Of a DNA stretch of 32,070 nucleotides, positions 555 through 28,218 are shown one piece after another; within the stretch, counting starts at the first letter, position 1; each line of letters starts with the position of its first letter. Source of the stretch: a virus. Taxonomy: Duplodnaviria; Heunggongvirae; Uroviricota; Caudoviricetes. The notes under the pieces were generated by a model. It searched no databases and was not told the origin of the DNA. It saw only the letters and a program-made list of their open reading frames with translations. The stretch is from the IMG/VR virus record IMGVR_UViG_3300034045_000104; one strand, given 5' to 3'. A program made the position numbers and the translations under genes.

Positions 555-577
555 ATAGCCACAAATACAGTGGCTAT
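555..577. terminator. 8-bp perfect hairpin closing the distal crRNA cassette
   Basis: ATAGCCAC-aaataca-GTGGCTAT, about 22 nt downstream (minus strand) of the last handle; no immediate U-tract. Confidence 0.4.
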
Positions 578-599
578 CAATACATGAACGAATACAACG

Positions 600-774
600 A
601 CCTACAGCAAGTAGGAATTATAGAAACATTAATCAGCATCTGCAAAAACCCTTTTATCCACTCATAGTAGAAATTAAAGAACATTCTGCGTGATATGATT
701 TGAAAACAATCTCGTTTTAACAGCAGCCAACCAATATCGGCAACTAAATAATAGATCCACTTTTAGTAGAAATT
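600..774 (-). CRISPR. Orphan Cas12a-type mini-array / crRNA-like cassette (3 handles)
   Basis: Minus-strand handles AATTTCTAC-TAAAA-GTGGAT (774-755), AATTTCTAC-TATGA-GTGGAT (675-656), AATTCCTAC-TTGCT-GTAGGT (619-600). All fit the Cas12a AAUU-UCUAC-loop-GUAGA-U handle with wobble or compensatory pairs. Spacing is irregular. Confidence 0.75.
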
Positions 775-830
775 AATATGTTAATTCAAGTTTAATAAAA
801 AGGTGCAAAATATTACCACCTAAGAAACCC

Positions 831-859
831 ATTTTAACTACAAAACACATTGTTTACAA
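831..859 (-). promoter_or_regulatory. Putative sigma70 promoter for the distal crRNA cassette
   Basis: TTGTAA-17 nt-TAAAAT on minus strand immediately after the MTase stop, pointing into the handles. Confidence 0.5.
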
Positions 860-6713: not shown

Positions 6714-8021
6714 TTAAACATGGGCATATCTAACTTCAATATTTGTACCCTTACGCTTGCCTGTGCCACACTTAAGATTATCAAAATAGGGCTTATATCT
6801 TTTGACAACATTACCAACAACCCGTTGACCCGAATATTTTTGTTTAGCCTGTGCCACCGATATCACCCCATGCTTTTCTAACTCAGCTTTCAGGGCATCT
6901 GTATCATTTCCGTATAGTCGGTCATAGATGAGAACTCCATTTCGTAGTTCGTGAACTAACGCCCTGTTAATCATGGCTCTCCTAGTTACTTTTCCAAATG
7001 ATATTGTTGAATTTGACATTTGATAAGCACATCGAGTACCTGCCAAAGCAATCCAAAAGCCAACCCCTCGCTTATAAGAGCCAGTATTACTCATACAGCT
7101 AGTCCAGCCCGTTGTGAAAGTTGAAGCCCCCAGCATATCAATAGGGTCGCCAGATATAACACAATCATTACCTAGTACATCAGTTTGTTTTTTGGGAAAA
7201 TTGGCAATATCTTTCTGCCTTAAGCCCATTTTCCACAATGAGTTCAATGCATATAGATTATCTTCAACATTAATTCTTTGATTGTCCTTTCTAGGCTCCT
7301 TGCATTTTGACCATTCAGTTAGCCCTTGCAATGAATCTTTATTTCCTTGAAACTTAGCGGCTCGAATTTTACGCAAAGCTTTACGAGCAGGGTGAACGCC
7401 ATGTTCATCCACTCCAACACCTGTGATTAAAATCCTACCATTGCTTAATTTTTGTAATTTAGTCTTACTTTTATTAACTACAAAACCACCACGAGTTACC
7501 ACCTGATTTATTATTGCAATAATATCAGAGGTATAACTTTCATCATCAAAACTAATAGTTAAATCATCGGCATAGCGCGTATAGATACACTGCATTTTCT
7601 TTTTTTCAAAAGCTCTCAAAATTGCTAAATCACTTTTACGAAAAGCCAAATTAGAGATGGCTGGAGATGTAGGCAAACCTTGCCTTGCACTACCATCAAT
7701 AAAGCACAAATCAAGCTCTTGTTTGTTGAGATGACCCTTTACCGTCTTTGGGGTAATGCTATCAAAGAAGTCTTGTAAATCCATTGACAATGTGAATTGA
7801 TGCCCAACATGTTTTGTTGCATTGGTAACACAATTACGTGTTCGCATAAATGCATGACAAATCTCTGAATCTGCATCTAGTTTCATCATTTTACTAGCAA
7901 TATTAGCTACCGCATTTTTCAAAGCAACCTTATATTCACCACTAGCATCATATATTTTTCTAAACTTGCCATTGCCTTTCGCGAGCTGAAACACCCGATA
8001 TTGCTTTTCTACTACTGCCAT
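6714..8021 (-). CDS. Retron-type reverse transcriptase with about 190-aa unknown C-terminal extension
   Basis: RT motifs MDLQDFFDSI, QGLPTSP, YADD; retron region X NATKH and region Y ITG. Confidence 0.9.
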   Translation of the reverse strand: MAVVEKQYRVFQLAKGNGKFRKIYDASGEYKVALKNAVANIASKMMKLDADSEICHAFMRTRNCVTNATKHVGHQFTLSMDLQDFFDSITPKTVKGHLNKQELDLCFIDGSARQGLPTSPAISNLAFRKSDLAILRAFEKKKMQCIYTRYADDLTISFDDESYTSDIIAIINQVVTRGGFVVNKSKTKLQKLSNGRILITGVGVDEHGVHPARKALRKIRAAKFQGNKDSLQGLTEWSKCKEPRKDNQRINVEDNLYALNSLWKMGLRQKDIANFPKKQTDVLGNDCVISGDPIDMLGASTFTTGWTSCMSNTGSYKRGVGFWIALAGTRCAYQMSNSTISFGKVTRRAMINRALVHELRNGVLIYDRLYGNDTDALKAELEKHGVISVAQAKQKYSGQRVVGNVVKRYKPYFDNLKCGTGKRKGTNIEVRYAHV

Positions 8022-9255: not shown

Positions 9256-9293
9256 ACATCACCAATTTATAAAAAACCATTATAGACAGGCAC

Positions 9294-9322
9294 AAAAAAG
9301 CCGCTTTAAAAAGCGGCTTTTT
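9294..9322. terminator. Bidirectional intrinsic terminator ending the crRNA cassettes
   Basis: AAAAAAGCCGC-tttaaaaa-GCGGCTTTTT. Confidence 0.8.
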
Positions 9323-9336
9323 GAATAGGAATATTA

Positions 9337-9467
9337 ACCAACACAAGTTGGGAGTAACAATTAACCCTAAGGTAATCGTCAGGAATTAACAAAGTCTATT
9401 AGACAACTGTGTTAGAACCTCTCCAAAACTTACCTACACAAGTAGAGATTTACGTAGTCTATTAAAC
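9337..9467 (-). CRISPR. Cas12a mini-array cassette 3
   Basis: Near-consensus repeat 9467-9432, 27-nt spacer 9431-9405 (AAGTTTTGGAGAGGTTCTAACACAGTT), half repeat ending 9404, variant handle ACTCCCAAC-TTGT-GTTGGT at 9355-9337. Confidence 0.75.
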
Positions 9468-9570
9468 AGCTAACTAAGAACAAAATACCCTATATGGTGC
9501 TTTTGAGTATCACAAGATTCAAAAAAACACTATATTCATGCTATTATACTCATTAGACCAGGGTTTGCAA
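9468..9570 (-). promoter_or_regulatory. Promoter + leader, copy C
   Basis: TTGCAA(9570-9565)-16 nt-TATAAT(9548-9543); 44-nt core 9487-9530 identical to copies A and B. Confidence 0.8.
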
Positions 9571-9594: not shown

Positions 9595-9785
9595 ATCTGC
9601 ATCAGCAAATTTACATAGCCCATTAGTCCAATAATATTTGTATTTCTCATAAGTTTACATAACCTATTAGACAGAAGTTATATTTATACTTATAGATGTA
9701 TCCGCAAAAGCGGAAGTTTTATAGTGTCATTGAGACTTATGAGTTAGGTATCCGCAAAAGCGGAAGTTTACAAAGTCTATTAAAC
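9595..9785 (-). CRISPR. Cas12a mini-array cassette 2 with variant TCCGC/GCGGA handles
   Basis: Repeats 9785-9750 and 9736-9700 with handle AACTTCCGC-TTTT-GCGGAT; 13-nt spacer 9749-9737; 27-nt spacer 9699-9673; degenerate repeats 9672-9654 and 9628-9595. Confidence 0.8.
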
Positions 9786-9868: not shown

Positions 9869-10031
9869 TCATTCACAAATTGGAATTAACGTAGCCTATT
9901 AGACCCGCTCAGACATAAGTTTCCTCAGCCAAATCTACACAAGTAGAAATTCTCCTAGTCTATTAAACGCAAGAGCTAGCCAACCCTGACCATGAATCTA
10001 CACAAGTAGAAATTCTCCTAGTCTATTAAAC
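9869..10031 (-). CRISPR. Cas12a mini-array cassette 1 (consensus repeats)
   Basis: Two identical 36-nt repeats GTTTAATAGACTAGGAGAATTTCTACTTGTGTAGAT (10031-9996, 9968-9933), 27- and 28-nt spacers, degenerate terminal repeat about 9904-9869. Confidence 0.93.
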
Positions 10032-10136
10032 AGCTAAATAAGGACAAACAACCCTATATGGTGCTTTTGAGTATCACAAGATTCAAAAAAACACCTATAT
10101 TCATGCTATTATAGTGATTAAGACCAGGGATTGCAA
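10032..10136 (-). promoter_or_regulatory. Promoter + leader, copy A
   Basis: TTGCAA(10136-10131, inside cas12a)-17 nt-TATAAT(10113-10108); 44-nt core 10051-10094. Confidence 0.85.
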
Positions 10137-13100
10137 TTATCTAACATATTTAAGAAATGCCCAAAATACTTTTCGTTTTCTAAAAACAAATCAACCTTGT
10201 CATCAACTGCAGTCTCATTGATTTGCTGTAAAGCCCATAACCCCTTCACCCCAATTAAATAAGCGCCCAACATATCAGTAGAGCAGGGCATATTACCTGC
10301 ATCCAAGGAATTGTAATAACTGCCATCAGAGCAACGAATGGGGGATAAAACATAATCCAAACCACCTCGCCCGTTAGATTGCCTCATTTTAAAAACCAGA
10401 TTCAATAAAAAGAATAAATCTCTAAAAAACGCAGCTGAATTAACCTCTAAGATCACTGGCAATATATCTTCACCATCCTTAAATTCAATATCAGCATTAA
10501 TCAACAACGACTGCAATTCTTCATTAACATTAATACATTCAAATTCTTTTTGGGTCTTGTCATAAAAATAACGCTCATCTCCATGAGTGGATGCCACCCA
10601 TTTTGTTTTATAACCAGTAAAATCCCGTTTAGAAAACATTGGCTCATAATCAAAACCAATATCAAAAACATTGAATTCTTTATTAAAACGAACACCTTCA
10701 AACTTACCTAAGAAAGACTTCGCATTTTTCATGTTTTTATATTGAAACCTGATCAAATTAACAAAACCTGATTTCGGACAAAGCGATGTTGTATAGCTTG
10801 GATTAGCAATAAACATGGCCCCCGCCTGTTTTCCTAGCATTTTAAGCGATTCAAATTTAGGTGCCAATTGATAAGCATTTAAAACATGACCCGCCTGGCC
10901 AATAGTCTTTTCTTTTAGTACCATAAAATTAAGCTTATTTGATAATGCAATCAAGAATCGGTCATATATTTGCGCCTCAAACTTCTGCCTAGCTTGCTTG
11001 AAACCAGCATCCAATCCATCCACACATAGTACCGCATTATGCTCAATCATTAATCTTGTAACCCTATGCAAGACGGTACCAAGAAAACCTTGTTTTAATT
11101 CTTTAATCCCATCAACAGCAGCCCATGCCTTTCTTGATGCGTTTCTTTTCAACTCTCTATCTTTCAAGATAACTTGATAATCAGTAACTATTTTGTTGGG
11201 GTCAACGACCTTATCAAGTGTATCATGATCGATAATTTTTCCTGATTGGTCCATTACAACATAGTAAAGAAGATTCTTTTCACCACGTTTTAAAGCCAGT
11301 ACATTTATTTTCTTTTTATTGGCTCGAATCACTTCATTATTGAAGTTGCGGTTAAAGTAAAAAGATTCTTTTGCGCCTTGATGGTTTAATGTGATGCTAA
11401 AATTAAATTGAAAATGTTCCTTAGTGTATTTCTTATCTTTAATAATATCATAAGCATAAGTTGCTGTTTTATTTTTTGCATTGGGATTTTTATTCTTAAT
11501 TGGAATCCCTGCTTTATGCACAATCATTTGTTCCTTGCTAATTAGTGCGGGTCGCCAAAAAAGCTCACCACCTCCATTTAATTTGATAATTGGCGCTTTC
11601 AAGTTCACTTGAGAGAACAAGTTTTTAATGTACATCGTGTGTATACTATCACGCCCTTTTGAATGGGGAGAAAAATCCATATTGTAGATTTGGAATAAGA
11701 ATAACTTACCACTTTCAACAGCCGCATCGATGTAATCATTTTTGATACAAGTAAAATCAACTTTATAAGCGGCCTTTTCAACTTCTACATAAAACTCACT
11801 GACATTGGTATAAGTCGATGTCTTACTGAAATTATAATTAAACTGGTTCCAAACAGGATGAATTTTAAGACAGCCCTTAAAGTAATCAATGACCTTATGA
11901 CAGTCATCTAAATTGAATTCAGCCTTATCAAAACCATCCTTTGGCAACCCACCTTTGGTATGTGAAGAGCGATTAGTAATATCGATAATTTCATCACTAG
12001 GATTAAAGAATTCACGTCTATTCAACGCTGAAATAAAAACTTTAGGACCCATTTTATTGAAGCCAGATACCATGGAGTAATCCATTTTATTGTAGCCAAC
12101 ACCATCTGGGCATTTGATTTCATTCAAAAATGCTTTTTTCTTCGCAGCTTTTACAGGGTTAAAATGCTCATCAAATTTAAGCGTGTAATCAAAGAGCTTT
12201 TTATTATCTTGATTAACTATCCCCAGGTAATACAAACCATCTTTTTCAAACATAACAGATGAGGATGCCTGTTCTTGACCTGATGACCAACCACTGAGTA
12301 ATTGATAATTATCAAAGTTTAACTTGATCTTCTTACTAGTTGATTTTTTCTTAGTTACATGATTTCTGACTTTGTTATAAAGCAAAAACATTAATTCATC
12401 TAGATGAGAATAAACATCCAGGAACCCAGAATAAAACAAAGAATCATGATTGAGGGCTTTAGTCATATCAATAGCAGCTTTATTTTCAACCAAATGAAGC
12501 GGCCTATAAGCTACAACGAACGCGTTCATGCACTCCAATAAGGACTGAATTATTTGAACTTGCTTAAATCCCTTGCCGCCTTCGTCTTCATCATTTCTTG
12601 TTTTTGGTAGCCTTCTATTGGCATCTAGAAAATCAAGGCATTCAATTGTCTTATATAACTCACGAGCCTTGTCATAAGACTCTTTTAATTTGATATAAGA
12701 ACCAACAATGCCAGATTGCACAGGCAATTGCGTTTTCAATTCTGATAAAATAGAATAAAAACCATCATCAGAATTCAGCGTATTAGCATATTTGATAATG
12801 AGCTCATCCATCTGACCGATACTGACAACCGACACATCATTTAGATTGTTCTCACTTAGCACGACATCAATTAATTTATAGTCACCAAATATAGCGTTAG
12901 ATAAGAATTTAATTTTGTTGGTTTTGATATAAATAGCAGTCGCGTCACGCTTGCTCAGCGATAATATTGTTTGACTCAAAGAATTAAAAATACCATCCTT
13001 TGACTCTAACATCTCAACAGCGGCATTAAGTGCGGCAATCATTTCCTTATCAGTATCGAAAAACGCAGGCACAAACGACAAAGAGCCCCCTTCACCAAAT

Positions 13101-13990
13101 ATTTGACGTTGAAGTTTTACAAAAACGCCAAACCTTGAGATGTCTTTATTGACTGCTAATAATTCATATATAAAGCTATTTATACCCTTGGTACGAGAGC
13201 CATCCTCATGACTAACACCTAGGAATTTTGCATTGTAATTATTTATATTGTTCTGAGCGACATAATCAAAAGCCTTGCTTAATTCAAACAACTCATCACT
13301 CTTATGTAACACATCCAATAAGCCATCAAATCTTTTGTCTTGCTCACCCAACCCAAGAACATTATTAAAGGCCAATTTATTTTTGAAAAACAATTCTAAA
13401 TTCACATCAACGATACGATAGGCCAGGGCATTAGATTTGGACTCAGATGAAAACAAGCTTTTCTTTAGCTTAAAGTAATCCATAAAATAACTGGTAAACT
13501 TATTAAATCCATGGACTATTTGAATGTCTTTATAGTCACAATCTTGCTCATCCATCCACTCAGGCAAAACCTTCACCAAAAATGCTGATTTCAAAAGAGC
13601 GCTTAAGCCAATAAAGCATTTAGCAACATGCTTTCTTAACTTGTCTTTACTAGAATCATAGGCTTTAAAAGCCTTTTGCATGCGCTTGGTCTTTACTTCT
13701 TTTGACTCATCACCTTCATCAGATGTACCAATCACAGACCGATACAACTCATAGTGGGACTCAATCAATGCGGCATCAACCTTAAGGCCTGCAAGACAAC
13801 GCTTGATGTAATCACGATAGTAAGCATCAGCAAATCCTTTTACAGCCAAAAAATCCTTAGCTCTTTGCTTATCTTGTTCAACAAATCCCTTTTCTTTAAT
13901 GTGTTCCAGAGTTTTACCGACCGGAATTAGTTTTTGGCGAATAGTTTTTGTCACTTGGTATACACCGGTGCTTTCATCAAAGACACTCAT
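10118..13990 (-). CDS. cas12a: Type V-A Cas12a (Cpf1) homolog, predicted nuclease-dead
   Basis: 1290 aa; N-terminal KTIRQKLIPVGKT, KLNFDN..LSGW, NKMGPKVF, KLNGGGELF. RuvC-I LALKRGEKNLLY (D>K), RuvC-II LCVDGL (E>D), RuvC-III TDMLGAY. Adjacent Cas12a-type repeats. Confidence 0.95.
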   Translation of the reverse strand: MSVFDESTGVYQVTKTIRQKLIPVGKTLEHIKEKGFVEQDKQRAKDFLAVKGFADAYYRDYIKRCLAGLKVDAALIESHYELYRSVIGTSDEGDESKEVKTKRMQKAFKAYDSSKDKLRKHVAKCFIGLSALLKSAFLVKVLPEWMDEQDCDYKDIQIVHGFNKFTSYFMDYFKLKKSLFSSESKSNALAYRIVDVNLELFFKNKLAFNNVLGLGEQDKRFDGLLDVLHKSDELFELSKAFDYVAQNNINNYNAKFLGVSHEDGSRTKGINSFIYELLAVNKDISRFGVFVKLQRQIFGEGGSLSFVPAFFDTDKEMIAALNAAVEMLESKDGIFNSLSQTILSLSKRDATAIYIKTNKIKFLSNAIFGDYKLIDVVLSENNLNDVSVVSIGQMDELIIKYANTLNSDDGFYSILSELKTQLPVQSGIVGSYIKLKESYDKARELYKTIECLDFLDANRRLPKTRNDEDEGGKGFKQVQIIQSLLECMNAFVVAYRPLHLVENKAAIDMTKALNHDSLFYSGFLDVYSHLDELMFLLYNKVRNHVTKKKSTSKKIKLNFDNYQLLSGWSSGQEQASSSVMFEKDGLYYLGIVNQDNKKLFDYTLKFDEHFNPVKAAKKKAFLNEIKCPDGVGYNKMDYSMVSGFNKMGPKVFISALNRREFFNPSDEIIDITNRSSHTKGGLPKDGFDKAEFNLDDCHKVIDYFKGCLKIHPVWNQFNYNFSKTSTYTNVSEFYVEVEKAAYKVDFTCIKNDYIDAAVESGKLFLFQIYNMDFSPHSKGRDSIHTMYIKNLFSQVNLKAPIIKLNGGGELFWRPALISKEQMIVHKAGIPIKNKNPNAKNKTATYAYDIIKDKKYTKEHFQFNFSITLNHQGAKESFYFNRNFNNEVIRANKKKINVLALKRGEKNLLYYVVMDQSGKIIDHDTLDKVVDPNKIVTDYQVILKDRELKRNASRKAWAAVDGIKELKQGFLGTVLHRVTRLMIEHNAVLCVDGLDAGFKQARQKFEAQIYDRFLIALSNKLNFMVLKEKTIGQAGHVLNAYQLAPKFESLKMLGKQAGAMFIANPSYTTSLCPKSGFVNLIRFQYKNMKNAKSFLGKFEGVRFNKEFNVFDIGFDYEPMFSKRDFTGYKTKWVASTHGDERYFYDKTQKEFECINVNEELQSLLINADIEFKDGEDILPVILEVNSAAFFRDLFFLLNLVFKMRQSNGRGGLDYVLSPIRCSDGSYYNSLDAGNMPCSTDMLGAYLIGVKGLWALQQINETAVDDKVDLFLENEKYFGHFLNMLDNCNPWS

Positions 13991-14135
13991 AAACCAGCCC
14001 CACGCCCTTCACGCACATTCTCAATCAACTCATAAAAATCATCACTTGCATTCATACCCGTACCCTTATTAGTTATTTGAATTATATTATAGAAAGGCAC
14101 ATATTACACGCGCCACCTTACTTACTCATCTACTT

Positions 14136-14864
14136 TTATTGTTCGGCTAGAAATTGACTAAATTTAGCATATTCATCAGCTGTAATATTAACAAACTTAT
14201 TCCACCCTGTATACGCATCTAGCAACTCACTAGCCATGTGCTTATTAGAGGCATCAAAAACCTCACACGTTCCATTAAATAAAATATCACCAGACCTTAA
14301 TGCATTTATCAAGTCATTAATTCCGTAATTGTCATAATGATTAACATAATCAGAGCCAAGCAAAAAATATTGTTTATTATCAATTTCAAGCTGCTCATCT
14401 ACAAAGCCACTGACCGTCTCATACCAATCTTTTTCATCCCAGTTATCATTTCCATACTTCTCTTGAAAGGCCATGGTGATTTCAACACAAATTCCCATCA
14501 AACCAGCCTGACCCTCATGGCGCTTTATTTTTATAAGTTTAGGATTAACATCTGCCAAACCAACAATTTGCTCACAAACCAGCCAATTAACCTCCAAATA
14601 CCCAAGCAATCTTTTTTTGAGCGTCTTACAGCCAACCTTAAGAATATTTTGTATTGACTCAACTACCATTGCACAATTTCTATACGCATTATCAACATAG
14701 AATACTGTATTTGTACTCATACAGATAATCGCAACAGTCAAGCCTTGGCTATTTGCATTATTATCAAAATAGACATCGATATGCATAAAATTATCATCAT
14801 CTATAAAATCATTCTTAACTTCAGTTACATTCTTCTGATTACTATTAGTCATATTTACCACCAC
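14136..14864 (-). CDS. Hypothetical protein (242 aa)
   Basis: Long co-oriented ORF; no motif recognised. Confidence 0.75.
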   Translation of the reverse strand: MVVNMTNSNQKNVTEVKNDFIDDDNFMHIDVYFDNNANSQGLTVAIICMSTNTVFYVDNAYRNCAMVVESIQNILKVGCKTLKKRLLGYLEVNWLVCEQIVGLADVNPKLIKIKRHEGQAGLMGICVEITMAFQEKYGNDNWDEKDWYETVSGFVDEQLEIDNKQYFLLGSDYVNHYDNYGINDLINALRSGDILFNGTCEVFDASNKHMASELLDAYTGWNKFVNITADEYAKFSQFLAEQ

Positions 14865-16067: not shown

Positions 16068-17431
16068 TTGACATCCTCACCGCCCTAAAGGACGATGATT
16101 CCTAAAAGAATTAGGCAACTAACGATCGCTCGTACAGTTGAGGTTCCTGCTTCATAGAGACTGCCAACGCACTCTCTCCACAGGCTATCGCGACAAGCCC
16201 TGCCGCTAAAATATTTAATGCAGCGTTTAAGTCTGCATTTAGTTCTAATCCACATACCAGGCACTTAAACAACTCTTGGGTTTTTCTGTTGTCTTTGTGT
16301 GTAAATCCACAACCACTACATTTTTGAGAAGTGTATTTTGGGTCTATCTTGATTACATCATTGCCCTGCCATTGGCACTTATACTCAAGCTGGCGAACAA
16401 ACTCGCCCCAAGCTTGCTCAAGGATCACTCGATTCAACCCAGATTTTGCCTTAATGTTTTTACCAGGGCTTTCCATATCGCCTTTAGCTGATTTACTCAT
16501 GTTTATGATTTTCAAATCTTCAACAAAAATGATAGCGTGGTTTTTGCTCAATTGTGTTGAGGTTTTATGAAGAAAATCGTGACGAGTATTTTTAATCAAA
16601 GTATGCAGCTTTGAAACCTTAAGTTTTTGTTTTCTCCAATTATTAGAGAACTTGACCTTACGCGCTAAGTTGCGTTGCAGCTTAGCTAGTTTGGTTTTAT
16701 TAATTTTGCCAGAGTTAACTGGTGCCACTACCAGCCCATCAGAACAAGTCACAAACTGTTTGACTCCCAAATCAATACCAATAGCAGAGGTAGCTTTTGA
16801 TTCAGCATTGACAGCAGTTTCAACCTGAACTGACATGTACCAACCATTGGCACCTTTGGATATGGTTATATTCTTTGGTGTACCAACAATCTCTTGAGAT
16901 TTAAAGAAACCAACCCAACCAATTTTAGGCAAGTACACCCTGCGGTTATCGAACTTAAAGCCCTGAACATACCTGAAAGCATTGGATTGGTGCTTTTTCT
17001 TAAATCGTGGCAATCTTTTGAGTGGTTGTTTCTTATCGAAACAATCCTTAAAAGCCTTTTCCAAATCTTTGAGTTTTTGTTGTAGAACCTGGCTATGACA
17101 TTCTTTCAAGAACCCATATTCTTCTGATTGTTTCCACAAGGTCAACCAGTAGGCGGATTCATTGTACCAGTAGATATTTTGTTTTTGCTCAAGCCTAGAG
17201 ACACACATTGCCAATACTTTATTCCAAGCAAACCGAGCATGACCACTAAAGACATTGAGCTTGCGCTCAATATTAACATCGGTCTTTAACTTGAATTTAT
17301 AGGCTTTGCGTATATTCATAGTTGGGAGTTTACCAAATCCTATTCTCAAAACTTGAGAATGGAATTAAATTAAACATTAAAAAAAGGCTTATATCCCCGC
17401 CATGAATGACGGGGTTTTACGCCTAAAAGTG
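16068..17431 (-). mobile_element. IS200/IS605-family non-autonomous element (tnpB only)
   Basis: Left end TTAT|CAC...CCCCGTCA-TTCA-TGGCGGGG hairpin (17414-17395); right end TCATCGTCC-TTTA-GGGCGGTGA hairpin finishing GGATGTCAA at 16068; no tnpA. Confidence 0.85.
16111..17349 (-). CDS. tnpB: TnpB RNA-guided endonuclease
   Basis: KAYKFKL N-terminus; Ruv[17 protein letters not shown] all intact; CSGC/CLVC zinc finger. Confidence 0.95.
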
Positions 17432-17464
17432 ATAATTAACAAGATATTATAGTTTCACTGCAAT

Positions 17465-17678
17465 TCAAGCAGCGACTTTAAATGTACGCGGTTGATTCAC
17501 CTCAACCACTTTAAACTCAGCACCATATTTCTTATTTACCCCACCACAAAAGACACATGCCTTAGATTCATCCATAAAACCCTTAATTTTGAAATAGGGC
17601 TCATATGAATATTTATAACCACGCTTGATGCCCCTAATGAAATAACCGTCCTTTACTGATCGCAGGGCATAATACATA
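17465..17678 (-). pseudogene. 3' fragment of IS3-interrupted gene
   Basis: Removing the IS and one TAT copy joins ...ITVD to MYYALR... in frame. Confidence 0.8.
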
Positions 17679-17708
17679 TGTAATGGTCAAGTTTTATCGG
17701 AGACATTT

Positions 17709-18548
17709 TTAGCCACATTTCCTTAATTCATTAAATTTCTGATTTGGAGTTAAATAATCAATAGCAGAATGTAATCTTTTGTAATTATAGAAATAAATAT
17801 AACTTTCAACTTCTGTAATAACTGCTTCATGATTAATAAACCTCAAATGGTTTAATCGTTCTGTTTTTAAATTTCTAAAAAATCTTTCCATAACAGCATT
17901 ATCCCAACAATTACCTCTGCGACTCATACTCCGAGTTATTTTTAAACCTTCACAATACACGGCAAACATGTTTGCCGTGTATTGTGTGCCTTGGTCAGAG
18001 TGAAACAATAGATTACTTGTGTCTGGTTGCTTTCTATTAATAGCATTGCTTAATGCCGCTTTTGCTAATGTGGCATCGGGTGTTTTTGACAAAGCCCAAC
18101 CAACTATTTCTTTTGTGCCTAAATCAAGTACACTTGCTAGATAACTCCAGCCTTGGTGGTTACGAATATAAGTTATGTCACCAACCCAATGTGTATTGAT
18201 TCTTGATTGTTTAAACTGTCTATCTAGAACATTCTCAATCTTCATATCACATATACCGCTATTGGGGTAATAATGCTTTTTCTTTGGCTTAATCGCCACT
18301 ATTTTAGCCATTTTCATCATGCTGGCTGTTTTATGAAGGCCAATATTGATCCCTTCAAGTTTTAATTGTTGTTGCATACGCCTTTTACCATATGAATGCT
18401 TAGTTTCAATGGCTGTTTGCTTGAGAATTGAGATTATCTTATTCTTTTCCCCTGCAAGTGGCTTTTCCTTTGATTGGTCGTAATAGGTGCTTTGATTTAA
18501 ATCAAAAACATCGCATAATTCCGTGATTGTATATTTAGGATTTGCCAT
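17709..18548 (-). CDS. IS3 transposase OrfB (DDE/rve)
   Basis: WVGDITY, HSDQGTQY, DNAVMERFF motifs; the -1 frame is open from the A6G site to this ATG. Confidence 0.93.
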   Translation of the reverse strand: MANPKYTITELCDVFDLNQSTYYDQSKEKPLAGEKNKIISILKQTAIETKHSYGKRRMQQQLKLEGINIGLHKTASMMKMAKIVAIKPKKKHYYPNSGICDMKIENVLDRQFKQSRINTHWVGDITYIRNHQGWSYLASVLDLGTKEIVGWALSKTPDATLAKAALSNAINRKQPDTSNLLFHSDQGTQYTANMFAVYCEGLKITRSMSRRGNCWDNAVMERFFRNLKTERLNHLRFINHEAVITEVESYIYFYNYKRLHSAIDYLTPNQKFNELRKCG

Positions 18549-18574
18549 CTTAAGTTCTTTGATTTTAATTGCTT

Positions 18575-18880
18575 TTAATCTTCTCGAATAAAGATGGCTG
18601 CAGCCTTTTTTAAGATTTCATTATCTCTTTTAGCTCTCCATAATTGATTTTTTAAACCCTGTATTTCTTGTTGTTCTGCAGTTAATGCTTTCTTACCTTC
18701 AGGGGTATTACCAACAAGTTCATCAAGATATTGTTTCTTCCAACGTGAAACTGCGGTAGAACCAGCTCCTGAAATATCAACAATTTGTTGATTTGTATAA
18801 CTTTCATTAACCATTAATTTGGCATAATCTAATCTTTGTTCAACTGTAAATGACAACCTTTGTTTTCTTTGCTTTGACAT
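18575..18880 (-). CDS. IS3 transposase OrfA (HTH)
   Basis: HTH plus leucine-zipper-like end ...ENEILKKAAA-type (RDNEILKKAAAIF). Confidence 0.9.
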   Translation of the reverse strand: MSKQRKQRLSFTVEQRLDYAKLMVNESYTNQQIVDISGAGSTAVSRWKKQYLDELVGNTPEGKKALTAEQQEIQGLKNQLWRAKRDNEILKKAAAIFIRED

Positions 18881-19533: not shown

Positions 19534-22500
19534 TTATGCCGCTTTGTTTTTATTTGAAACAAATTGATTCATATCCTCCAAATCCCGAACAAATTGATAG
19601 ATGATTGTATCCATATGTAAGAACTCAGTATCAGATAATAGCGGATCACCAAAATCTAAACCCTCGTTAGCTACTTCTCGCTTAAATGCCACCATCTGCT
19701 CTTGATAAATATCAATAGAACCTTCAAGCATTACATATTCGATAGTTACCTTTTTAAGTTGGCCAGGCCTTAATAACCGTGAATAACATTGAGCCTCATT
19801 TTTGTTCAGCCAATCCCTGCCGTAAAAGCAAGCATAGCTTGCTACCTCGACATTTTCCCCCTCGGCCAAGCATTTTTTAGTGGCCAGTAATATATCAATA
19901 TTCCCATTCTTATACTCATCATTAAGCAATTGGGCTCGTTTTGGCGCAGTTATAGCACCAGTATAAACCAATGACTTAAAACCACGTAAAGCTAACATGT
20001 CGTGTAATCTGTTAATCGTATCAGGTGAATCGGCAAATAAAATACATTTCTCCCCATCACCAACCCTTTTTATCAAGCTATCAACACAGTAGCGGTCTTT
20101 AGATGTGGGCTCTGTATGAATGCCAATAACACCACTGTCCTTATTTAATACAAAAGGCTTGTTACAAGCTGCTAATACCGCATTGATGCGAGGCAATATA
20201 CTGTGCATAGATGTAACCTCACCATCTTTTACCTTTTTCATTCTCTCCATCCATACATGCTTAAATTCAGTACATACTTTAAGATAATGCTCTAAATGCT
20301 CATCGTCCCAAGACAAATAAGTATTAATTACCTCAGGTTTTGGCAAATCAACATGCTTAACGCAATCAGGCTCACTTGTAACCCTGCGCTTCATAAATGG
20401 AGCCAATAACTGTCTATATTCACCAACATTACGAATCTGGGGGATCTCTCTTTTTGCCCCTTCATCCATGGTATCTGAAAACATATTTGTAACCCATTTC
20501 ATAGTTACAAACATATCCATAAACTCTTTATTCGAGCTAAATGAGTCATTCATGTTATTAACATGATGAGGCATTAAATGCCCATGTAAACCCCAGGGCA
20601 TATGCGAGCACCCGTCACCCGCACAGGCAATTAACAATGGCAATATATTGCGTGCTTGATTGGGAATAGGGGTGCCAGTCATAAGAATTAATTTCTTAGC
20701 ACTTAATTGTCTTACCGCCCTTGATTGTAAGGTTGACGTGTTACTCAATAAATGCGCTTCATCGGCCAACACAAGCCCACAACGGCGCCTTAAATGATTG
20801 GCATACGTCTTGTTAGGCTTTGTTCTATCAGGCAAGCAAGAAAGACGTGAATAACTTACAATGTTGATCTTTTTTAAGTTGTTTACCGTTTCCAATGAGT
20901 CAATAACATTAACATCATTAATATCAATATAATCTGACAAATCCTCTTTTATTTGTCTTATAAACTCGAACACTAATTTTGACATAACAACGATCAAGCC
21001 ATGCTTTACATTAGCTAGCAATATAGAGGCTAATATTTGCCTAGTCTTACCCAAGCCCATTTGAGCACCTAATATTGAACCTACTGGACTAAGCGTCAAC
21101 TCACAAATGTCATCCAATTGAAATTTCCAAAGCCATTTTTGAAGCAGAAGTTTTTTAGCCCGGGCATTTATCTCATGATGCAGCTCAGGGAATGCAGCAC
21201 TCTTGCCTTCATACTTGGCAATCCATTTACCACCTTCACCTTTTTGAACCATTTCAAAGTTATCATAAATATATTTTTCAGATAATTTATATTCAGCACC
21301 TTCACAGCTACAATAAAAAATCCCTTGGCGCTCAACCACGTCTATAAACTCACCTTTGTTTATAACTGGCGATATAAAAGAATCCTCCTCAATTAAAACA
21401 TCAACTTTAGCTCTGTACTTGGATTCAGAAATTGTGTTTTCATCAACATAGACAATATGACGCATAGGCTCCACAATCCTTGCCATCTTCCTTGCTCTTT
21501 TCTTAATGTAGTTTATAAGCCCATCATCAACAGTAACAACAGCTCCCGTACTTGAAATTATATTAACTAAATTCTGATAAATAGACATCACAGGATCAGT
21601 TTGCATTAAATGTAACTCACAGTCCAAACGGCCTTGGCCAACATACTTAACATGTTTAGCTAATTTCATTTTGTCATCACATGACTTTGCTGACTTAACA
21701 TAAACGGCATTTAAAACTTTAGCTTGCATTAATCCACATTTAAAACCTAAAATTATTTTACGTCCATTATGCGCCACCCTTACTGATTTATCACCAGTTA
21801 CAGGCATCGTTATTATTGGCTTTGAGAAACTTAATCCACGCTTAGAAATTGAGCAACTACCCATATACTCAGACAACTTTAAGACAGGGTAATTAGATAC
21901 CTTAAAATCTGCATTAACTTTCTCACGAATCATCCCGTCAGTAAATCTATTAAATACACACACAGATGTTTTAACCAAGGCGCCTTGTTCACTAAAGGCA
22001 TTAACTGGCAAGTCATAAATAGCACGTAGATTTTTATCTGTTAACTCAAGCTTGTTGGCAAAATTGGTTGGCAGAACTGCTATAACAATATTTGAAACAC
22101 TCTTTGCCTGTGCTAAAGCATACTCATGGCTTAGCGCACTGGAATTTGGGCCATATTCGCCATAATGATTACAACCAAGATTTTTTAAATGTGGCGATTC
22201 AAGGCTCAAGCTAAATGGTGGATTAATTAGCGAAAAATCAAATCTATCTTTTGAAAACGAAATATTTTCCATGCCAGAATTTATAATATCATAATCAAAA
22301 TCAGCAGCGCTTAAAGCGTCACATAAAGCATCCACGGACTCACCGTGAATATCACATCCAAATAAATGATGTTTTTGAGGGTCAGCCAACCAAAACAGCG
22401 AGCCAACCGCGCAGCTATTGTCCATCAAGGATATCTTACTTCTCTGTGCGTAGCCTTCACTTGATTCAATAATATCCCAGCACAAACGCTGAATATCATT

Positions 22501-22620
22501 TGTTGTAAAAAACTGAGATAAAGTTTTCTTTCGCACCTTATGCAAATTACCAAGACTACCAGGACGTTCAGCTTGTGAACCAAGCGACTTTATATTTGTT
22601 AGATTTTCATACCAAGACAT
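19534..22620 (-). CDS. N6-adenine methyltransferase-SNF2 helicase fusion
   Basis: QFFT, MDNSCAVG, NPPF MTase motifs; GAQMGLGKT, DEAH, MTGTP and QCYSRLLRPGQ helicase motifs. Confidence 0.85.
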   Translation of the reverse strand: MSWYENLTNIKSLGSQAERPGSLGNLHKVRKKTLSQFFTTNDIQRLCWDIIESSEGYAQRSKISLMDNSCAVGSLFWLADPQKHHLFGCDIHGESVDALCDALSAADFDYDIINSGMENISFSKDRFDFSLINPPFSLSLESPHLKNLGCNHYGEYGPNSSALSHEYALAQAKSVSNIVIAVLPTNFANKLELTDKNLRAIYDLPVNAFSEQGALVKTSVCVFNRFTDGMIREKVNADFKVSNYPVLKLSEYMGSCSISKRGLSFSKPIITMPVTGDKSVRVAHNGRKIILGFKCGLMQAKVLNAVYVKSAKSCDDKMKLAKHVKYVGQGRLDCELHLMQTDPVMSIYQNLVNIISSTGAVVTVDDGLINYIKKRARKMARIVEPMRHIVYVDENTISESKYRAKVDVLIEEDSFISPVINKGEFIDVVERQGIFYCSCEGAEYKLSEKYIYDNFEMVQKGEGGKWIAKYEGKSAAFPELHHEINARAKKLLLQKWLWKFQLDDICELTLSPVGSILGAQMGLGKTRQILASILLANVKHGLIVVMSKLVFEFIRQIKEDLSDYIDINDVNVIDSLETVNNLKKINIVSYSRLSCLPDRTKPNKTYANHLRRRCGLVLADEAHLLSNTSTLQSRAVRQLSAKKLILMTGTPIPNQARNILPLLIACAGDGCSHMPWGLHGHLMPHHVNNMNDSFSSNKEFMDMFVTMKWVTNMFSDTMDEGAKREIPQIRNVGEYRQLLAPFMKRRVTSEPDCVKHVDLPKPEVINTYLSWDDEHLEHYLKVCTEFKHVWMERMKKVKDGEVTSMHSILPRINAVLAACNKPFVLNKDSGVIGIHTEPTSKDRYCVDSLIKRVGDGEKCILFADSPDTINRLHDMLALRGFKSLVYTGAITAPKRAQLLNDEYKNGNIDILLATKKCLAEGENVEVASYACFYGRDWLNKNEAQCYSRLLRPGQLKKVTIEYVMLEGSIDIYQEQMVAFKREVANEGLDFGDPLLSDTEFLHMDTIIYQFVRDLEDMNQFVSNKNKAA

Positions 22621-24574: not shown

Positions 24575-27500
24575 ATGCATATTACAGAATTACAGATTAG
24601 CAAAGCTCTGGGAGAATCAACGTATTCTATTGGAAAATTAATTTATGAGGCTAAACCAATATTCGAACACGAAATTGAAAAAGGAAATGGTGGGAAATTA
24701 GTATTTACATCCAAGCTTTCACAAGAGGATCAGACAACAGAACAACGAATCGAGATTACCCCCCATAATAATGAAATTATAATAAATGGCGAATGCTCCT
24801 GTTTAGATATGTTTGATTGCAAACATGTGGCCGCTGCTTGCATCGCTCTTAGCAACGTAGAAAAAAAACCATCTATTGAGAAAAAAACGAATCCAGTTAA
24901 GCCCAAAGATGCTGTGAATTCATGGTTAAAGACACTAACACCAAATACCAAACCCCCAGACCCACAATTATCATTAAGCTTTGCTCAAGAAAGAATTATA
25001 TATCGCATTTGTGAAGATGGGATGAAGCAAGACATATGTATTTATCACATAGGTTCAAATCAACGCTGCCAACTACAAAGCACTAACCAGCTCAATTCAT
25101 TAAACAATATAAACCAAATATTAAATACAGATGACGCAAATACTTTGGCAATACTGCACAATGCGAATCATGAGGCGCAATCTATACTAAACGGAGAGTT
25201 TGGATATTTACTCGCTACATCATTACTGAAAACAGAAAAATGTTATTATAAATCATCTCCCAAACCATTAACGCTTAGCAAAATACCGCTTCCTTTAATG
25301 TTTCAATGGAAAAAAGGAACCGATAAAACGCTATGGCTTGTTTCAAATATAAAACTAGCCCGTTACCACATATTACAAACCACTCCTTTGCTTATAATAG
25401 ACTCAACCACAAATGTTATATCGCAACTTAGTGGCCAATATGATTATGCTACCATTCAAAAACTAATAAACATACCACCAATACCAGAGGCCCAAGCCAA
25501 AGGAGTATATGATACCCTTCTCGATAATTTCCCAAAAATTAAAATCCAACTTCCTGAAATCCAAACTACCGATACTATTAAGCAACTGCCAACTCCTCAC
25601 TTGAAGCTTTATAGTACGAAATCCAACAAAAGCCATAAATTCATTCAGTATGAAATTTATTATGACAAGCACAGAGTTGAACCGTACAAAAGAAATGAAA
25701 CCGAAATTATAGAGAATAAAGATAATAAAACAATAATAATTAGAAGTCTTGAGAGTGAAGATAAATCACTAGACATCATTAAAAACTGTGGCTTTATAGA
25801 AATAATAGACACCGATAAACCATTAGAATCACATATGATTGACTTAACAATATCATATGACATGCCACCACAAAAAGCTCTTGGAATATGGAGCCAATTT
25901 ATGCAATCCACCATACCACACCTTAAAGCATTGGGATGGGTAATTGAGATTGACGAAAGTTTTAATATGGAATTTACTGAAACATGCCAGATGATGGTAG
26001 ACAGCAGTAAAGATGATGATGGCTGGTTTTCACTTACATTTGATATCGAGATAAACGGCAATAGAATTCAATTAGTGCCGTTATTGACCAGTATATTTTC
26101 AGAATATGATAGCATTAAGGCACTACCTGAGACATTGATACTAGAGCACGAACCAAATAAGTATATTGAGATAAAAACAAAAGAAATTACACCTATTATT
26201 AATACTATTTATGAGCTTTTAGATAAAACCCAAAAAGACGGCAGCTTTAAAATCAAAGCATTTGATGCGCTTCTTGTAGACGCAGAATTATTACAATACA
26301 CATCATGGACAGGCACTAAAGAAATTATAAAACTTTCTGAAAAGCTTTCAAATCATAAAAAAATAGAAACTGTTAAGCCCCCAAAATCATTATCTCTACC
26401 GTTAAGAGATTATCAGCACACAGGATTTAACTGGATGCACTTTTTGAACGACTACGGGTTTTCTGGGATTTTAGCTGATGATATGGGCCTTGGAAAAACA
26501 TTTCAAGTGCTCTCGTTATTGTTAAAATTAAAGGAAGAGGGCAAGCTTAACAAGCCAGCCATTATAATTGTACCAACATCACTTGTAACAAATTGGGAGA
26601 TGGAAAACCAAAAATTCACACCTACATTAAAATTGCTCGTTCTTTATGGCAAAGATAGAAATAGTGACTTTGATAAAATTAACGAATATGACATAATTAT
26701 TACTACATATGGCCTGATAACAAGAGATCAAGATACGCATCAGACTATCCAATATTCATACGCCATATTAGATGAAGCCCAAGCGATAAAAAATCACAAA
26801 GCCATAACTACAAGAAATATCTGTAAGATAAATAGCGTGCATCGCATCGCCATGAGTGGCACTCCAATAGAAAACCACTTGGGAGAACTGTGGTCGCTCT
26901 TTAATTTTTTAATGCCAGGCTACCTTGGCACAATTCAAGGGTTCAATACAACATTTAGAAAACCAATTGAAGATAATGAAGATGTTAAAAAACAACAATT
27001 ACTCAATAAAAAAATAAATCCATTTGTTTTACGAAGAGATAAAAAAGAGGTACTAAAAGAAATGCCAGAAAAAACTATAAAAACGACTTATATTGAATTT
27101 GGTCCAGAACAGGCAAAACTTTATGAATCAATTAAACTAACCACGCAGCAAGAAGTCATTAAGCTAATTAAAAATAAGGGTAACAAAGCATCAATACAAG
27201 TTCTAACTGCAATTATGCAACTAAGACAAACCTGTTGTGATCCTAGACTTTTAAACCTGAAGAGAAACAAATTAAAATCTAAAAAATCAGCTAAAACAGA
27301 AGCCATTCTTCTACTAATCAAAGAAATACAAGAACAAAAAGGCAAGGTGATTATTTATTCATCATTTAAATCAATGCTCTTACTTCTTGAACCGTATCTT
27401 AAAAAAAACAAAATAAGGTATTCAATGATTACCGGTGGTACAATTGACCGAGGAAAACAAATATCTGATTTCCAAAATGGAAAAACTGACATAATACTCA

Positions 27501-27805
27501 TTACAAAAGCTGCCAGCAGTGGTGTAAACCTTACTGAAGCTAATCATGTGATAATAATTGAACCCTGGTGGAATCCAGCCGTTGAATCACAAACAATCGA
27601 CAGAGCGCATAGAATGGGGCAAAAAAGGCATGTTACAGTTCACAAACTCATCGTTAAAAACACAATTGAAGAAAATATCCTGGTGATGCAACAAAAAAAG
27701 CAATCACTACTAGATAATATGTATGAAGGAAACAAACAAGCTCAAAAAATGAAATTGACAGGCAATGATTTGAAGGAATTGCTAGGAATAAGTCAGGCAT
27801 CATGA
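24575..27805 (+). CDS. SWIM zinc-finger SNF2/SWI2 helicase
   Basis: CSC..DCKH SWIM; LADDMGLGKT, DEAQ, SGTPIEN, QTIDRAHRMGQ. Confidence 0.93.
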   Translation: MHITELQISKALGESTYSIGKLIYEAKPIFEHEIEKGNGGKLVFTSKLSQEDQTTEQRIEITPHNNEIIINGECSCLDMFDCKHVAAACIALSNVEKKPSIEKKTNPVKPKDAVNSWLKTLTPNTKPPDPQLSLSFAQERIIYRICEDGMKQDICIYHIGSNQRCQLQSTNQLNSLNNINQILNTDDANTLAILHNANHEAQSILNGEFGYLLATSLLKTEKCYYKSSPKPLTLSKIPLPLMFQWKKGTDKTLWLVSNIKLARYHILQTTPLLIIDSTTNVISQLSGQYDYATIQKLINIPPIPEAQAKGVYDTLLDNFPKIKIQLPEIQTTDTIKQLPTPHLKLYSTKSNKSHKFIQYEIYYDKHRVEPYKRNETEIIENKDNKTIIIRSLESEDKSLDIIKNCGFIEIIDTDKPLESHMIDLTISYDMPPQKALGIWSQFMQSTIPHLKALGWVIEIDESFNMEFTETCQMMVDSSKDDDGWFSLTFDIEINGNRIQLVPLLTSIFSEYDSIKALPETLILEHEPNKYIEIKTKEITPIINTIYELLDKTQKDGSFKIKAFDALLVDAELLQYTSWTGTKEIIKLSEKLSNHKKIETVKPPKSLSLPLRDYQHTGFNWMHFLNDYGFSGILADDMGLGKTFQVLSLLLKLKEEGKLNKPAIIIVPTSLVTNWEMENQKFTPTLKLLVLYGKDRNSDFDKINEYDIIITTYGLITRDQDTHQTIQYSYAILDEAQAIKNHKAITTRNICKINSVHRIAMSGTPIENHLGELWSLFNFLMPGYLGTIQGFNTTFRKPIEDNEDVKKQQLLNKKINPFVLRRDKKEVLKEMPEKTIKTTYIEFGPEQAKLYESIKLTTQQEVIKLIKNKGNKASIQVLTAIMQLRQTCCDPRLLNLKRNKLKSKKSAKTEAILLLIKEIQEQKGKVIIYSSFKSMLLLLEPYLKKNKIRYSMITGGTIDRGKQISDFQNGKTDIILITKAASSGVNLTEANHVIIIEPWWNPAVESQTIDRAHRMGQKRHVTVHKLIVKNTIEENILVMQQKKQSLLDNMYEGNKQAQKMKLTGNDLKELLGISQAS

Positions 27806-28218
27806 CATCAATTGATAAATACAATGTAAAAAAGCATCAAATAGCTCTGCCACTGCTTGATGGACTTCTTTGTGGGACCAGTACAATGGCCTTTATTGCC
27901 AGTAGTGACTTAGATATAAATGAATATGTAATAGACAATTCAATTGCATCATTTTATGCAAAAGTATCAGGTGACTCCATGCAAAATGCGGGTATATATG
28001 ATGGAGACATGGTTTTAGTTGACAGGGCTAAAGCACCCAAAACCAATGACATTGTAATAGCTGTTGTAGATCAAGAATTTACGATTAAGCGATTAATGAT
28101 AAACGGGCCTAAAATACAACTCAACCCAGAAAACGATAAATACAAACCAATTAAAATTAATAATAGAAATTCTCTTACGATTTGGGGAGTTGTTAGTGCT
28201 GTAATTAAAAGACTCTAA
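27802..28218 (+). CDS. umuD: UmuD-like S24 peptidase
   Basis: SGDSM (Ser) and FTIKRL (Lys) catalytic motifs; Cys-Gly putative autocleavage site; ATGA overlap with helicase stop. Confidence 0.8.
   Translation: MTSIDKYNVKKHQIALPLLDGLLCGTSTMAFIASSDLDINEYVIDNSIASFYAKVSGDSMQNAGIYDGDMVLVDRAKAPKTNDIVIAVVDQEFTIKRLMINGPKIQLNPENDKYKPIKINNRNSLTIWGVVSAVIKRL

Follow-up and report, generated by a model that had tools for sequence, protein, structure and literature searches.

The 32,070-nucleotide (nt) viral record IMGVR_UViG_3300034045_000104, called the window here, carries on its minus strand, at positions 10118–13990, a gene for a 1290-residue Cas12a homologue whose RuvC triad reads Lys901, Asp991 and Asp1239. 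We call the gene dcas12a and its protein P0001. Judged from its sequence, the protein is a full-length homologue of the type V-A effector with a dismantled RuvC site, and this natural nuclease-dead variant appears to be real and maintained. The cutting site is dismantled while the guide-RNA site and eight guide units are intact, so the protein most likely binds DNA without cutting it. We consider it probable that dcas12a encodes a naturally nuclease-dead type V-A effector of this kind, with its own guide genes, in a self-contained module on a conjugative-plasmid-like element.

The three RuvC motifs of P0001 read LALKRGE, CVDGLD and STDMLGAY, against the canonical GIDRGE, xxEDLN and DADANGAY. 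In RuvC-I, the aspartate equivalent to D917 of FnCas12a is replaced by Lys901 (codon AAA, 11288–11290, minus strand). In RuvC-II, the glutamate equivalent to E1006 is replaced by Asp991 (GAT, 11018–11020, minus strand), with Gly next instead of Asp. The RuvC-III aspartate is kept as Asp1239 (GAT, 10274–10276, minus strand), but the residues that follow have changed from ADANG to TDMLG, and a 99%-conserved asparagine is Leu1241. The codons were read directly from the DNA. Lys901 was counted residue by residue opposite D917 in a phmmer alignment to the FnCas12a chain 5mga_A, and Asp991 and Asp1239 were placed opposite E1006 and D1255 by alignment range offsets. The first-pass annotation of this DNA had called the Asp-to-Lys change from the AAA codon at 11290–11288, the Glu-to-Asp change in VDGL, the retained Asp1239 in a DADANG motif turned into STDMLG, and the pairing with D917, E1006 and D1255; all of these readings hold, the phmmer pairing and the range offsets being in agreement. 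It is established, reportedly since work by Zetsche in 2015, that D917A or E1006A eliminates DNA cleavage by FnCas12a. From its triad, P0001 is predicted to lack both RNA-guided cutting of double-stranded DNA and the collateral DNase activity on single strands.

The site that processes precursor CRISPR RNA (pre-crRNA) is preserved, as had also been proposed. H825 (CAT), K834 (AAA) and K851 (AAA), within 11438–11518 on the minus strand, align with H843, K852 and K869 of FnCas12a, the residues that, reportedly after Fonfara in 2016, perform pre-crRNA processing. Equivalents of all three are also present in the two close relatives P0002 and P0003 and in the more distant P0036, which are described below. 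Conservation was assessed in an alignment of 156 full-length Cas12a proteins, where 168 columns are at least 85% conserved among the 137 members with the canonical Asp-Glu-Asp (D-E-D) triad. P0001, P0002 and P0003, which share the Lys-Asp-Asp (K-D-D) triad, all retain 113 of the 168. The changes of the K-D-D clade near the active site are G899A, D901K, N926D, E991D, N994D, Q1010D, E1013L, S1068T and N1241L; elsewhere, position 926 is 100% Asn, 1013 is 99% Glu and 1241 is 99% Asn. Outside the active site the clade shows K771M and H863N. One lysine of the protospacer-adjacent motif (PAM) site, K650, is retained in P0001.

The reading frame is uninterrupted over its 1290 codons, and all five Cas12a Pfam domains are present (PF18501, PF21918, PF22222, PF18516 and PF18510, corresponding to REC1, REC2, PI, RuvC_1 and NUC). 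Against TIGR04330, the Cas12a equivalog model of NCBI, residues 5–1277 reach 852 bits (cutoff 300), which bears out the earlier description of the frame as full length. P0001 matches every one of the solved Cas12a chains, with E-values between 1e-224 and 1e-120; the reconstructed ReChb is the best (1e-224), followed by FnCas12a (1e-180) and then by the Lb2, Mb, Lb and As enzymes. Trees calculated with FastTree and IQ-TREE nest it among the 156 full-length Cas12a proteins. An identity as Cas12a2 was ruled out by the domain content, which includes a normal NUC domain (E 6e-32).

The RuvC–Nuc half (residues 860–1290) was modelled with AlphaFold2 at a predicted local distance difference test (pLDDT) score of 86 and a predicted template-modelling (pTM) score of 0.86. 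The model superposes on solved Cas12a structures with TM scores of 0.85–0.87 and root-mean-square deviations of 2.2–2.7 Å. K901 closes the first RuvC strand (896–901), D991 closes strand 986–991, and a helix begins at D1239; all three are thus predicted to occupy the canonical strand or helix ends. As modelled, the RuvC–Nuc scaffold is whole and the chemistry alone is lost.

A search of 5.8 billion proteins returned two close relatives of P0001. P0002, from a Logan contig (locus L001; SRR29593758), has 1290 residues and aligns without a gap at 74% identity. P0003, from an ENA contig (ERZ26222911), has 1288 residues and is 53–57% identical over the C-terminal regions compared; it was the only close match among 1.84 billion cluster representatives (57%), the next being at 42%, in a search that lists 1276 representatives with E-values up to 0.001. 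Both relatives carry ALKRGE together with V/IDGL and retain the third aspartate, and the D-E-D triad is thus absent from all three proteins. With two independent metagenomic proteins sharing it, the K-D-D triad is more than a product of chance or sequencing error. No further member of the clade with flanking DNA was found in JGI metagenomes or IMG/VR.

With the motif columns removed, a FastTree analysis of the 156 proteins groups P0001, P0002 and P0003 with a support of 100 and places P0036 as their sister with a support of 99. P0036 is about 36% identical and has a His-Glu-Asp (H-E-D) triad (AIHRGE/IEDLN/IDALN). IQ-TREE with 40 taxa and the LG+C20 model recovers the same four-member clade (P0036, P0003, P0001 and P0002) with a support of 99 in the Shimodaira–Hasegawa-like approximate likelihood ratio test (SH-aLRT). 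The branch of P0036 is long and long-branch attraction is possible for its sister placement, and the deep placement of the four-member clade differs between FastTree and IQ-TREE. Compared by the Nei–Gojobori method with its relative at L001:5188–9060, the window gene gives a pN of 0.145 and a pS of 0.70. The ratio of nonsynonymous to synonymous divergence (dN/dS) is approximately 0.08, a rough value with synonymous sites near saturation, and 0.06 over residues 880–1070, the RuvC segment. The frames have stayed open over 1290 residues (P0001 and P0002) and 1288 residues (P0003) despite 26–47% divergence. Two checks suggested at first pass, whether the Asp-to-Lys change is common to a clade and whether dN/dS is below 1 elsewhere, thus both came out positive. 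The gapless relative, the low dN/dS, the clade support and the intact modelled fold together indicate that the dead Cas12a is maintained by purifying selection and is not an error or a dying gene.

Nineteen of the 156 Cas12a proteins are without the D-E-D triad, approximately 14 of them with cleanly aligned motifs (GINRGE, GIHRGE, GITRGE, GLKRGE and NAAANGAY). This 12% is not a family-wide rate, as the sample derives from the 150 representatives nearest a dead query plus the first 26 matches. On the tree of 156, the losses of the triad need 11 changes, at least eight of which are forced by well-supported branches. Non-canonical triads occur in at least eight independent lineages, with Asn, His, Thr, Lys, Ser or Ala at RuvC-I and Ala at RuvC-III; examples are P0009, P0065, P0090, P0103, P0132, P0140, P0143, P0154, P0160 and P0170. 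The putatively dead P0013 (GIARGP, Asp to Ala; locus L096, GCA_963611335.1, CAVDRW010000062.1) has cas4, cas1 and cas2 directly downstream, so not all dead variants are without adaptation genes.

The first-pass annotation had stated that no described family of this kind was known. As to the literature this stands: a full-text search found no natural RuvC-inactive Cas12a, although subscription journals lay mostly outside it and the result is no proof of absence. As to isolation it does not, given the 19 of 156 proteins without D-E-D. According to the main text and two supplement files of a 2025 classification (PMC12669027), RuvC was inactivated in type V on many independent occasions; types V-C, V-M, V-O and V-P, a Cas12b3 on a conjugative plasmid and the effectors of CRISPR-associated transposons (CAST) are named there as inactivated, and an inactivated V-A is not. 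The same parts describe binding-only interference for Cas12c and Cas12m.

Eight Cas12a CRISPR RNA (crRNA) handles lie on the same strand as dcas12a, five of them beside the gene and three at 600–774. The repeats that adjoin dcas12a end in a Cas12a-type handle hairpin (AAUUUCUAC-loop-GUAGAU), and every stem pairs. Three tandem cassettes follow immediately 3′ of the dcas12a stop codon, each opened by a TATAAT box. The promoter-like site of cassette 1 (TTGCAA-17-TATAAT, 10108–10136, minus strand; 10 of 12 consensus matches) overlaps the stop codon itself. Cassette 1 (9869–10031, minus strand) consists of two perfect 36-nt repeats (9996–10031 and 9933–9968), spacers S1 (9969–9995, 27 nt) and S2 (9905–9932, 28 nt), and a degenerate end repeat (9869–9904). 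Cassette 2 (9640–9785, minus strand) has two units with handles at 9750–9768 and 9700–9718, two guides and a degenerate end repeat at 9640–9673; its handle stem is UCCGC/GCGGA in place of UCUAC/GUAGA. Cassette 3 (9372–9467, minus strand) is a single unit with a repeat at 9432–9467, spacer S5 at 9405–9431 and a degenerate end repeat, and its handle stem is UCUAC/GUAGG. The promoter-like site of this cassette (TTGCAA-16-TATAAT, 9543–9570, minus strand; also 10 of 12) sits in a duplicated copy of the last 25 nt of dcas12a. The true repeats fold, whereas the terminal degenerate repeat of each gene-side cassette has lost the hairpin. A likely terminator, a GC-rich hairpin with a T run, follows the last cassette (9290–9325, minus strand); it was read from the sequence and is not listed by the consensus scan.

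An orphan cassette lies approximately 9 kb from dcas12a (556–859, minus strand). It has a promoter-like site of its own (TTGTAA-17-TAAAAT), carries bare 20-nt handles at 755–774, 656–675 and 600–619, each followed by a guide, and ends in a closing hairpin. The loops of these handles are 5 nt long, and the handles are spaced by 79 and 36 nt. When the eight handles are taken together with two from the array of the sister P0036, every one of the 40 stem cells is paired, and in three of the five pairs both partners have changed. Of 500 shuffles, no more than 8 do as well, and registers slid along the sequence pair at 25–51%. The handle stems therefore appear to be conserved through compensatory change. 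An Rfam scan gave no family that reached its gathering score.

Upstream of dcas12a, a 17-nt block with a TATAAT box (14078–14094, minus strand) recurs unchanged in L001, even though the two loci have unrelated genes upstream. A short upstream open reading frame (ORF) of approximately 22 codons (14000–14070, minus strand) overlaps the dcas12a start by ATGA and is not conserved in L001. The gene dcas12a, its promoter and the guide cassettes thus appear to behave as one module. The guides look hard-wired and inherited and not acquired, since bare handles and diverged repeats are unlike the products of Cas1–Cas2 integration and adaptation genes are missing: no Cas1, Cas2 or Cas4 family was found among the ORFs scanned in the 32 kb, and cas1, cas2 and cas4 are absent within 4–10 kb in L001, in the contig of P0003 and in L090, the locus of P0036.

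The neighbouring genes are plasmid-like, which agrees with the earlier placement of the gene on a mobile element without adaptation genes. From 24353 down to base 3, nearly all genes lie on the minus strand. In order, they are two small ORFs, a methylase-like/SNF2 fusion, an IS3 element and TnpB, two ORFs without a family, dcas12a with its cassettes, a retron-type reverse transcriptase (RT), a 564-residue ParB_N protein, DUF1064 and DUF5983 proteins, and an N6/N4 methylase with an Mrr_N domain. The ParB protein is YubM-like; a tblastn search of PLSDB with it matched 3514 records, of which 2527 are conjugative and one is annotated yubM. The DNA of the window, which belongs to a 143-kb contig, gave no match to PLSDB plasmids. 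The element looks like a conjugative plasmid, and the region, in a window without oriT or relaxase, seems to resemble an establishment or leading region.

The fusion protein (19534–22620, minus strand; 1028 residues) has, by its domains, a methylase-like N-terminal part with an NPPF motif and a C-terminal SNF2 helicase. It is 42% identical over its full length to L090:6768–9833, the gene directly upstream of P0036, and a second SNF2 protein, with a SWIM domain (24575–27805, plus strand), is 30% identical to L090:595–3447. The two elements thus appear to share backbone synteny, which fits vertical descent of the dead Cas12a within one family of large elements. The contigs of P0036 are 104–190 kb long and encode sigma-70, RecA, ribonucleotide reductase, ankyrin proteins and a fragment of an LPD1 polyvalent protein; at the locus itself there is an array of eight heterogeneous repeats. 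L001 has the SNF2/SWIM gene and two small ORFs in common with the window, with a ligase-like gene upstream of dcas12a, and its sequence ends at the stop codon. On the contig of P0003, only small ORFs lie upstream; downstream there is a gap of 793 nt and then an S24 peptidase. A conserved partner gene beside dcas12a was rejected, the immediate neighbours being unrelated between the loci.

Several further features of the window were noted. The SNF2/SWIM gene runs 4 nt into the start of a gene for an S24 peptidase (24575–28218, plus strand), and an S24 peptidase also follows the presumed array on the contig of P0003. Between the helicase and dcas12a (16111–18880, minus strand) are inserted a 412-residue TnpB (OrfB_IS605, with a Cas12f-like TNB domain) and IS3 orfA and orfB. 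The OrfB transposase of the latter is 88% identical to one in a metagenome-assembled genome labelled Lysobacterales and 56–66% identical to ones in marine Gammaproteobacteria. For the retron-type RT (6714–8021, minus strand), the best model is the retron St85 RT at 138 bits, below its cutoff, and approximately 190 extra C-terminal residues have no family match.

For none of the eight guides did any collection searched yield a protospacer. The guides have no match in the 32-kb window (20 nt with up to five mismatches, and seeds of 10–14 nt) or in 92 additional loci, and blastn against PLSDB and INPHARED at E-values up to 5 gave nothing above chance level. A match of 26 of 28 positions between the AT-rich S4 and Cellulophaga phages has an E-value of 0.2 and was taken as chance. 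Exact 20-mers of S1, S2 and S5 are without a match in IMG/VR, as is a 22-mer of S1 in JGI metagenomes. No target was found in 807 genomes (five that share the IS3 element plus 401 and 401 of their order and class), where the sole matches are leader or inter-cassette DNA. CreR-type autoregulation was rejected, as no guide has a seed of 8 nt or more on either strand of the dcas12a promoter region (13941–14260). For the array of the sister in L090, positions 29–48 of L098 (IMGVR_UViG_3300008267_000267) match the first 20 nt of spacer 2 exactly, which is the length that a hard-wired guide would need. As a target this match is probably chance: it stops at nucleotide 20, its 5′ flank is GCAG, and it lies in an ORF without a PHROG family. 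The remaining L090 spacers gave no matches or had E-values of about 0.5.

In the mechanism we favor, in line with the first-pass reading of an RNA-guided DNA binder or repressor, pre-crRNAs would be transcribed from at least three sigma-70-like promoters. The dead Cas12a would cut them upstream of each handle with H825, K834 and K851 and would load the guides. The guided complex would then find complementary double-stranded DNA flanked by a PAM, form an R-loop and remain bound without cutting, and transcription or replication of the target would be blocked. Binding would thus be the output, as for the engineered nuclease-dead Cas12a (dCas12a) and the natural Cas12c and Cas12m. Plasmid CRISPR systems such as type IV-A commonly target other plasmids. 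Our first guess for the role is the silencing of rival plasmids or phages, and our second is that host or plasmid genes are silenced during establishment. A wider reading is tentative and rather less likely: dead Cas12a would form a recurrent class of type V-A maintained by selection on plasmids and large phage-like elements, and the present lineage would be a hard-wired, multi-promoter CRISPR interference (CRISPRi) module whose expression from a conjugative element's establishment region silences resident rivals or host defence genes on entry. If true, this would be a natural counterpart of laboratory multiplex repression by dCas12a.

Three observations weigh against binding and silencing as the function. 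The first is the absence of a protospacer in the collections above, for which reason the role as a binder or repressor is put forward here as something we infer. The second concerns recognition of the target: the equivalent of AsCas12a K548 is Gln572 in P0001 and P0002, and because this lysine is replaced the PAM, or even the binding of duplex DNA, may differ from that of canonical Cas12a. The third is a gain of acidic residues by the pocket of the K-D-D clade, N926D, N994D/E and Q1010D, which could rebuild a metal site.

On this last basis the RuvC site may be thought of as rewired, with Asp926, Asp994 and Asp1010 joining Asp991 and Asp1239 around the metals, and the enzyme would still cut or nick DNA, or cut RNA. 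The three positions are otherwise conserved as Asn or Gln, the RuvC segment is strongly constrained (dN/dS 0.06), and relocated RuvC-II carboxylates are discussed for Fanzor in part of a preprint. The Nuc arginine gives a divided answer: it is kept in P0001 (R1203) and P0003, and it is Lys in P0002 and P0036, which suggests that the need for it is relaxed. We nevertheless regard a rewired site as unlikely. Two-metal catalysis is difficult to square with a lysine at the β1 position, where both metals are normally bound, E1013 and N1241 are both Leu now, and the sister P0036 has lost the same aspartate to His without the acidic gains.

It is similarly improbable that the dead Cas12a acts as an RNA-guided recruiter that delivers a partner enzyme to the target, in the way of Cas12k with Tn7 or dCas12f with a sigma factor. 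The candidate partner would be the nearby methylase-like/SNF2 helicase, whose homologue lies directly upstream of the H-E-D sister in L090, and the second SNF2 protein is also common to both loci. Shared ancestry of the backbone accounts for this synteny equally well. Between its SNF2/SWIM gene and dcas12a, L001 lacks a helicase of this kind, and upstream on the P0003 contig there are small ORFs only; in the window the IS3 element, TnpB and two ORFs separate the helicase from dcas12a, and the genes that immediately flank dcas12a are not conserved.

The protein could also be an anti-CRISPR decoy, which would soak up the type V-A crRNAs of the host or cover the plasmid's own protospacers and so shield the incoming plasmid. 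The setting is suggestive: the co-oriented block holds genes of the establishment or anti-restriction type (the YubM-like ParB, an orphan methylase and the methylase/helicase fusions), leading regions of conjugative plasmids are described as rich in anti-defence genes in part of PMC11541004, and a phage Cas9 with a dead RuvC is proposed as an anti-CRISPR in the portions of PMC12669027 cited above. For a pure sponge, the element's eight guide units, complete with promoters and handle stems under selection, would be superfluous, and no guide matches the window itself; we hold a decoy to be decidedly unlikely. That the gene is a decaying remnant without current function is very improbable and was already disfavored: adaptation genes are missing, the end repeats are degenerate, the repeats are heterogeneous and insertion sequences lie nearby, but the three frames are open over 1290, 1290 and 1288 residues, dN/dS is approximately 0.08, the handle stems are kept by compensatory change, the promoter block is conserved and the dead state reaches the sister at approximately 36% identity.

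A non-cutting, guide-carrying Cas12a would matter in several respects. Cas12a is one of the two workhorse CRISPR enzymes, and laboratory dCas12a is made by mutating exactly the residues that are changed here. For evolution, a natural dead state under selection across deep divergence would add type V-A to the non-cutting branches of type V (V-C, V-M, V-K, V-O, V-P and Cas12b3). For tool design, it would offer a scaffold that selection has tuned for binding without cutting, with a PAM that is possibly altered. The cassettes present a natural design for multiplexed guide expression, in which promoters are separate, 20-nt handles stand bare, and varied handles keep the repeats from being identical. 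For plasmid biology, the module suggests that RNA-guided silencing serves conjugative elements as a weapon or regulator beyond the type IV systems too. Such variants may well be hidden in databases, because a score of 852 bits on the equivalog model means that standard annotation calls a plain Cas12a.

The closest comparison is with the canonical Cas12a enzymes (Fn, Lb, As and Mb). P0001 shares their five-domain architecture, their length, the RNase triad of the WED domain and a 5′ handle hairpin of 19–20 nt, with no sign of a trans-activating crRNA (tracrRNA). It differs from them in having K-D-D for D-E-D, a remodelled pocket and one PAM lysine replaced; cas4–cas1–cas2 are absent, and the guides are spread over several separately promoted mini-cassettes, some with bare handles. 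Cas12c uses a tracrRNA and Cas12m is miniature. Both belong to other Cas12 lineages and are of other sizes, whereas here the inactivation would have arisen inside the Cas12a family; what they would share with P0001 is the predicted combination of crRNA processing with DNA-binding silencing without cutting, as far as the classification parts cited describe it (PMC12669027). Cas12b3, named in the same parts (PMC12669027) from a conjugative plasmid of Actinomyces, is likewise a large Cas12 with substitutions in RuvC-I and RuvC-II. It is of subtype V-B and tracrRNA-dependent, and both proteins appear to be known from sequence only.

Fixed guides that are not acquired are also found beside the genes for TldR and dCas12f–sigmaE, RNA-guided transcription factors descended from TnpB or Cas12f, which have a nuclease-dead RuvC and often reside on mobile elements, according to parts of PMC10705468 and PMC13472631. 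TldR and dCas12f–sigmaE are small, work with one long guide RNA and have target promoters that are identified, in contrast to the full-size Cas12a and eight guides here. The CreR/CreA mini-CRISPRs of V-A loci (bioRxiv 10.1101/2023.03.10.532045) are, like the present cassettes, degenerate arrays that do not grow, lie beside cas12a and guide binding and not cutting. CreR works by pairing in part with the cas promoter in loci whose Cas12a is active, whereas here the effector is predicted to be dead and no 8-nt seed match is present. Cas12a2 (V-A2) is related to Cas12a and has Cas12a-like repeats, but its Nuc is replaced by a zinc finger and its bridge helix by an insertion, and its RuvC is active; P0001 combines a normal NUC domain with a RuvC site that is, by its residues, dead.

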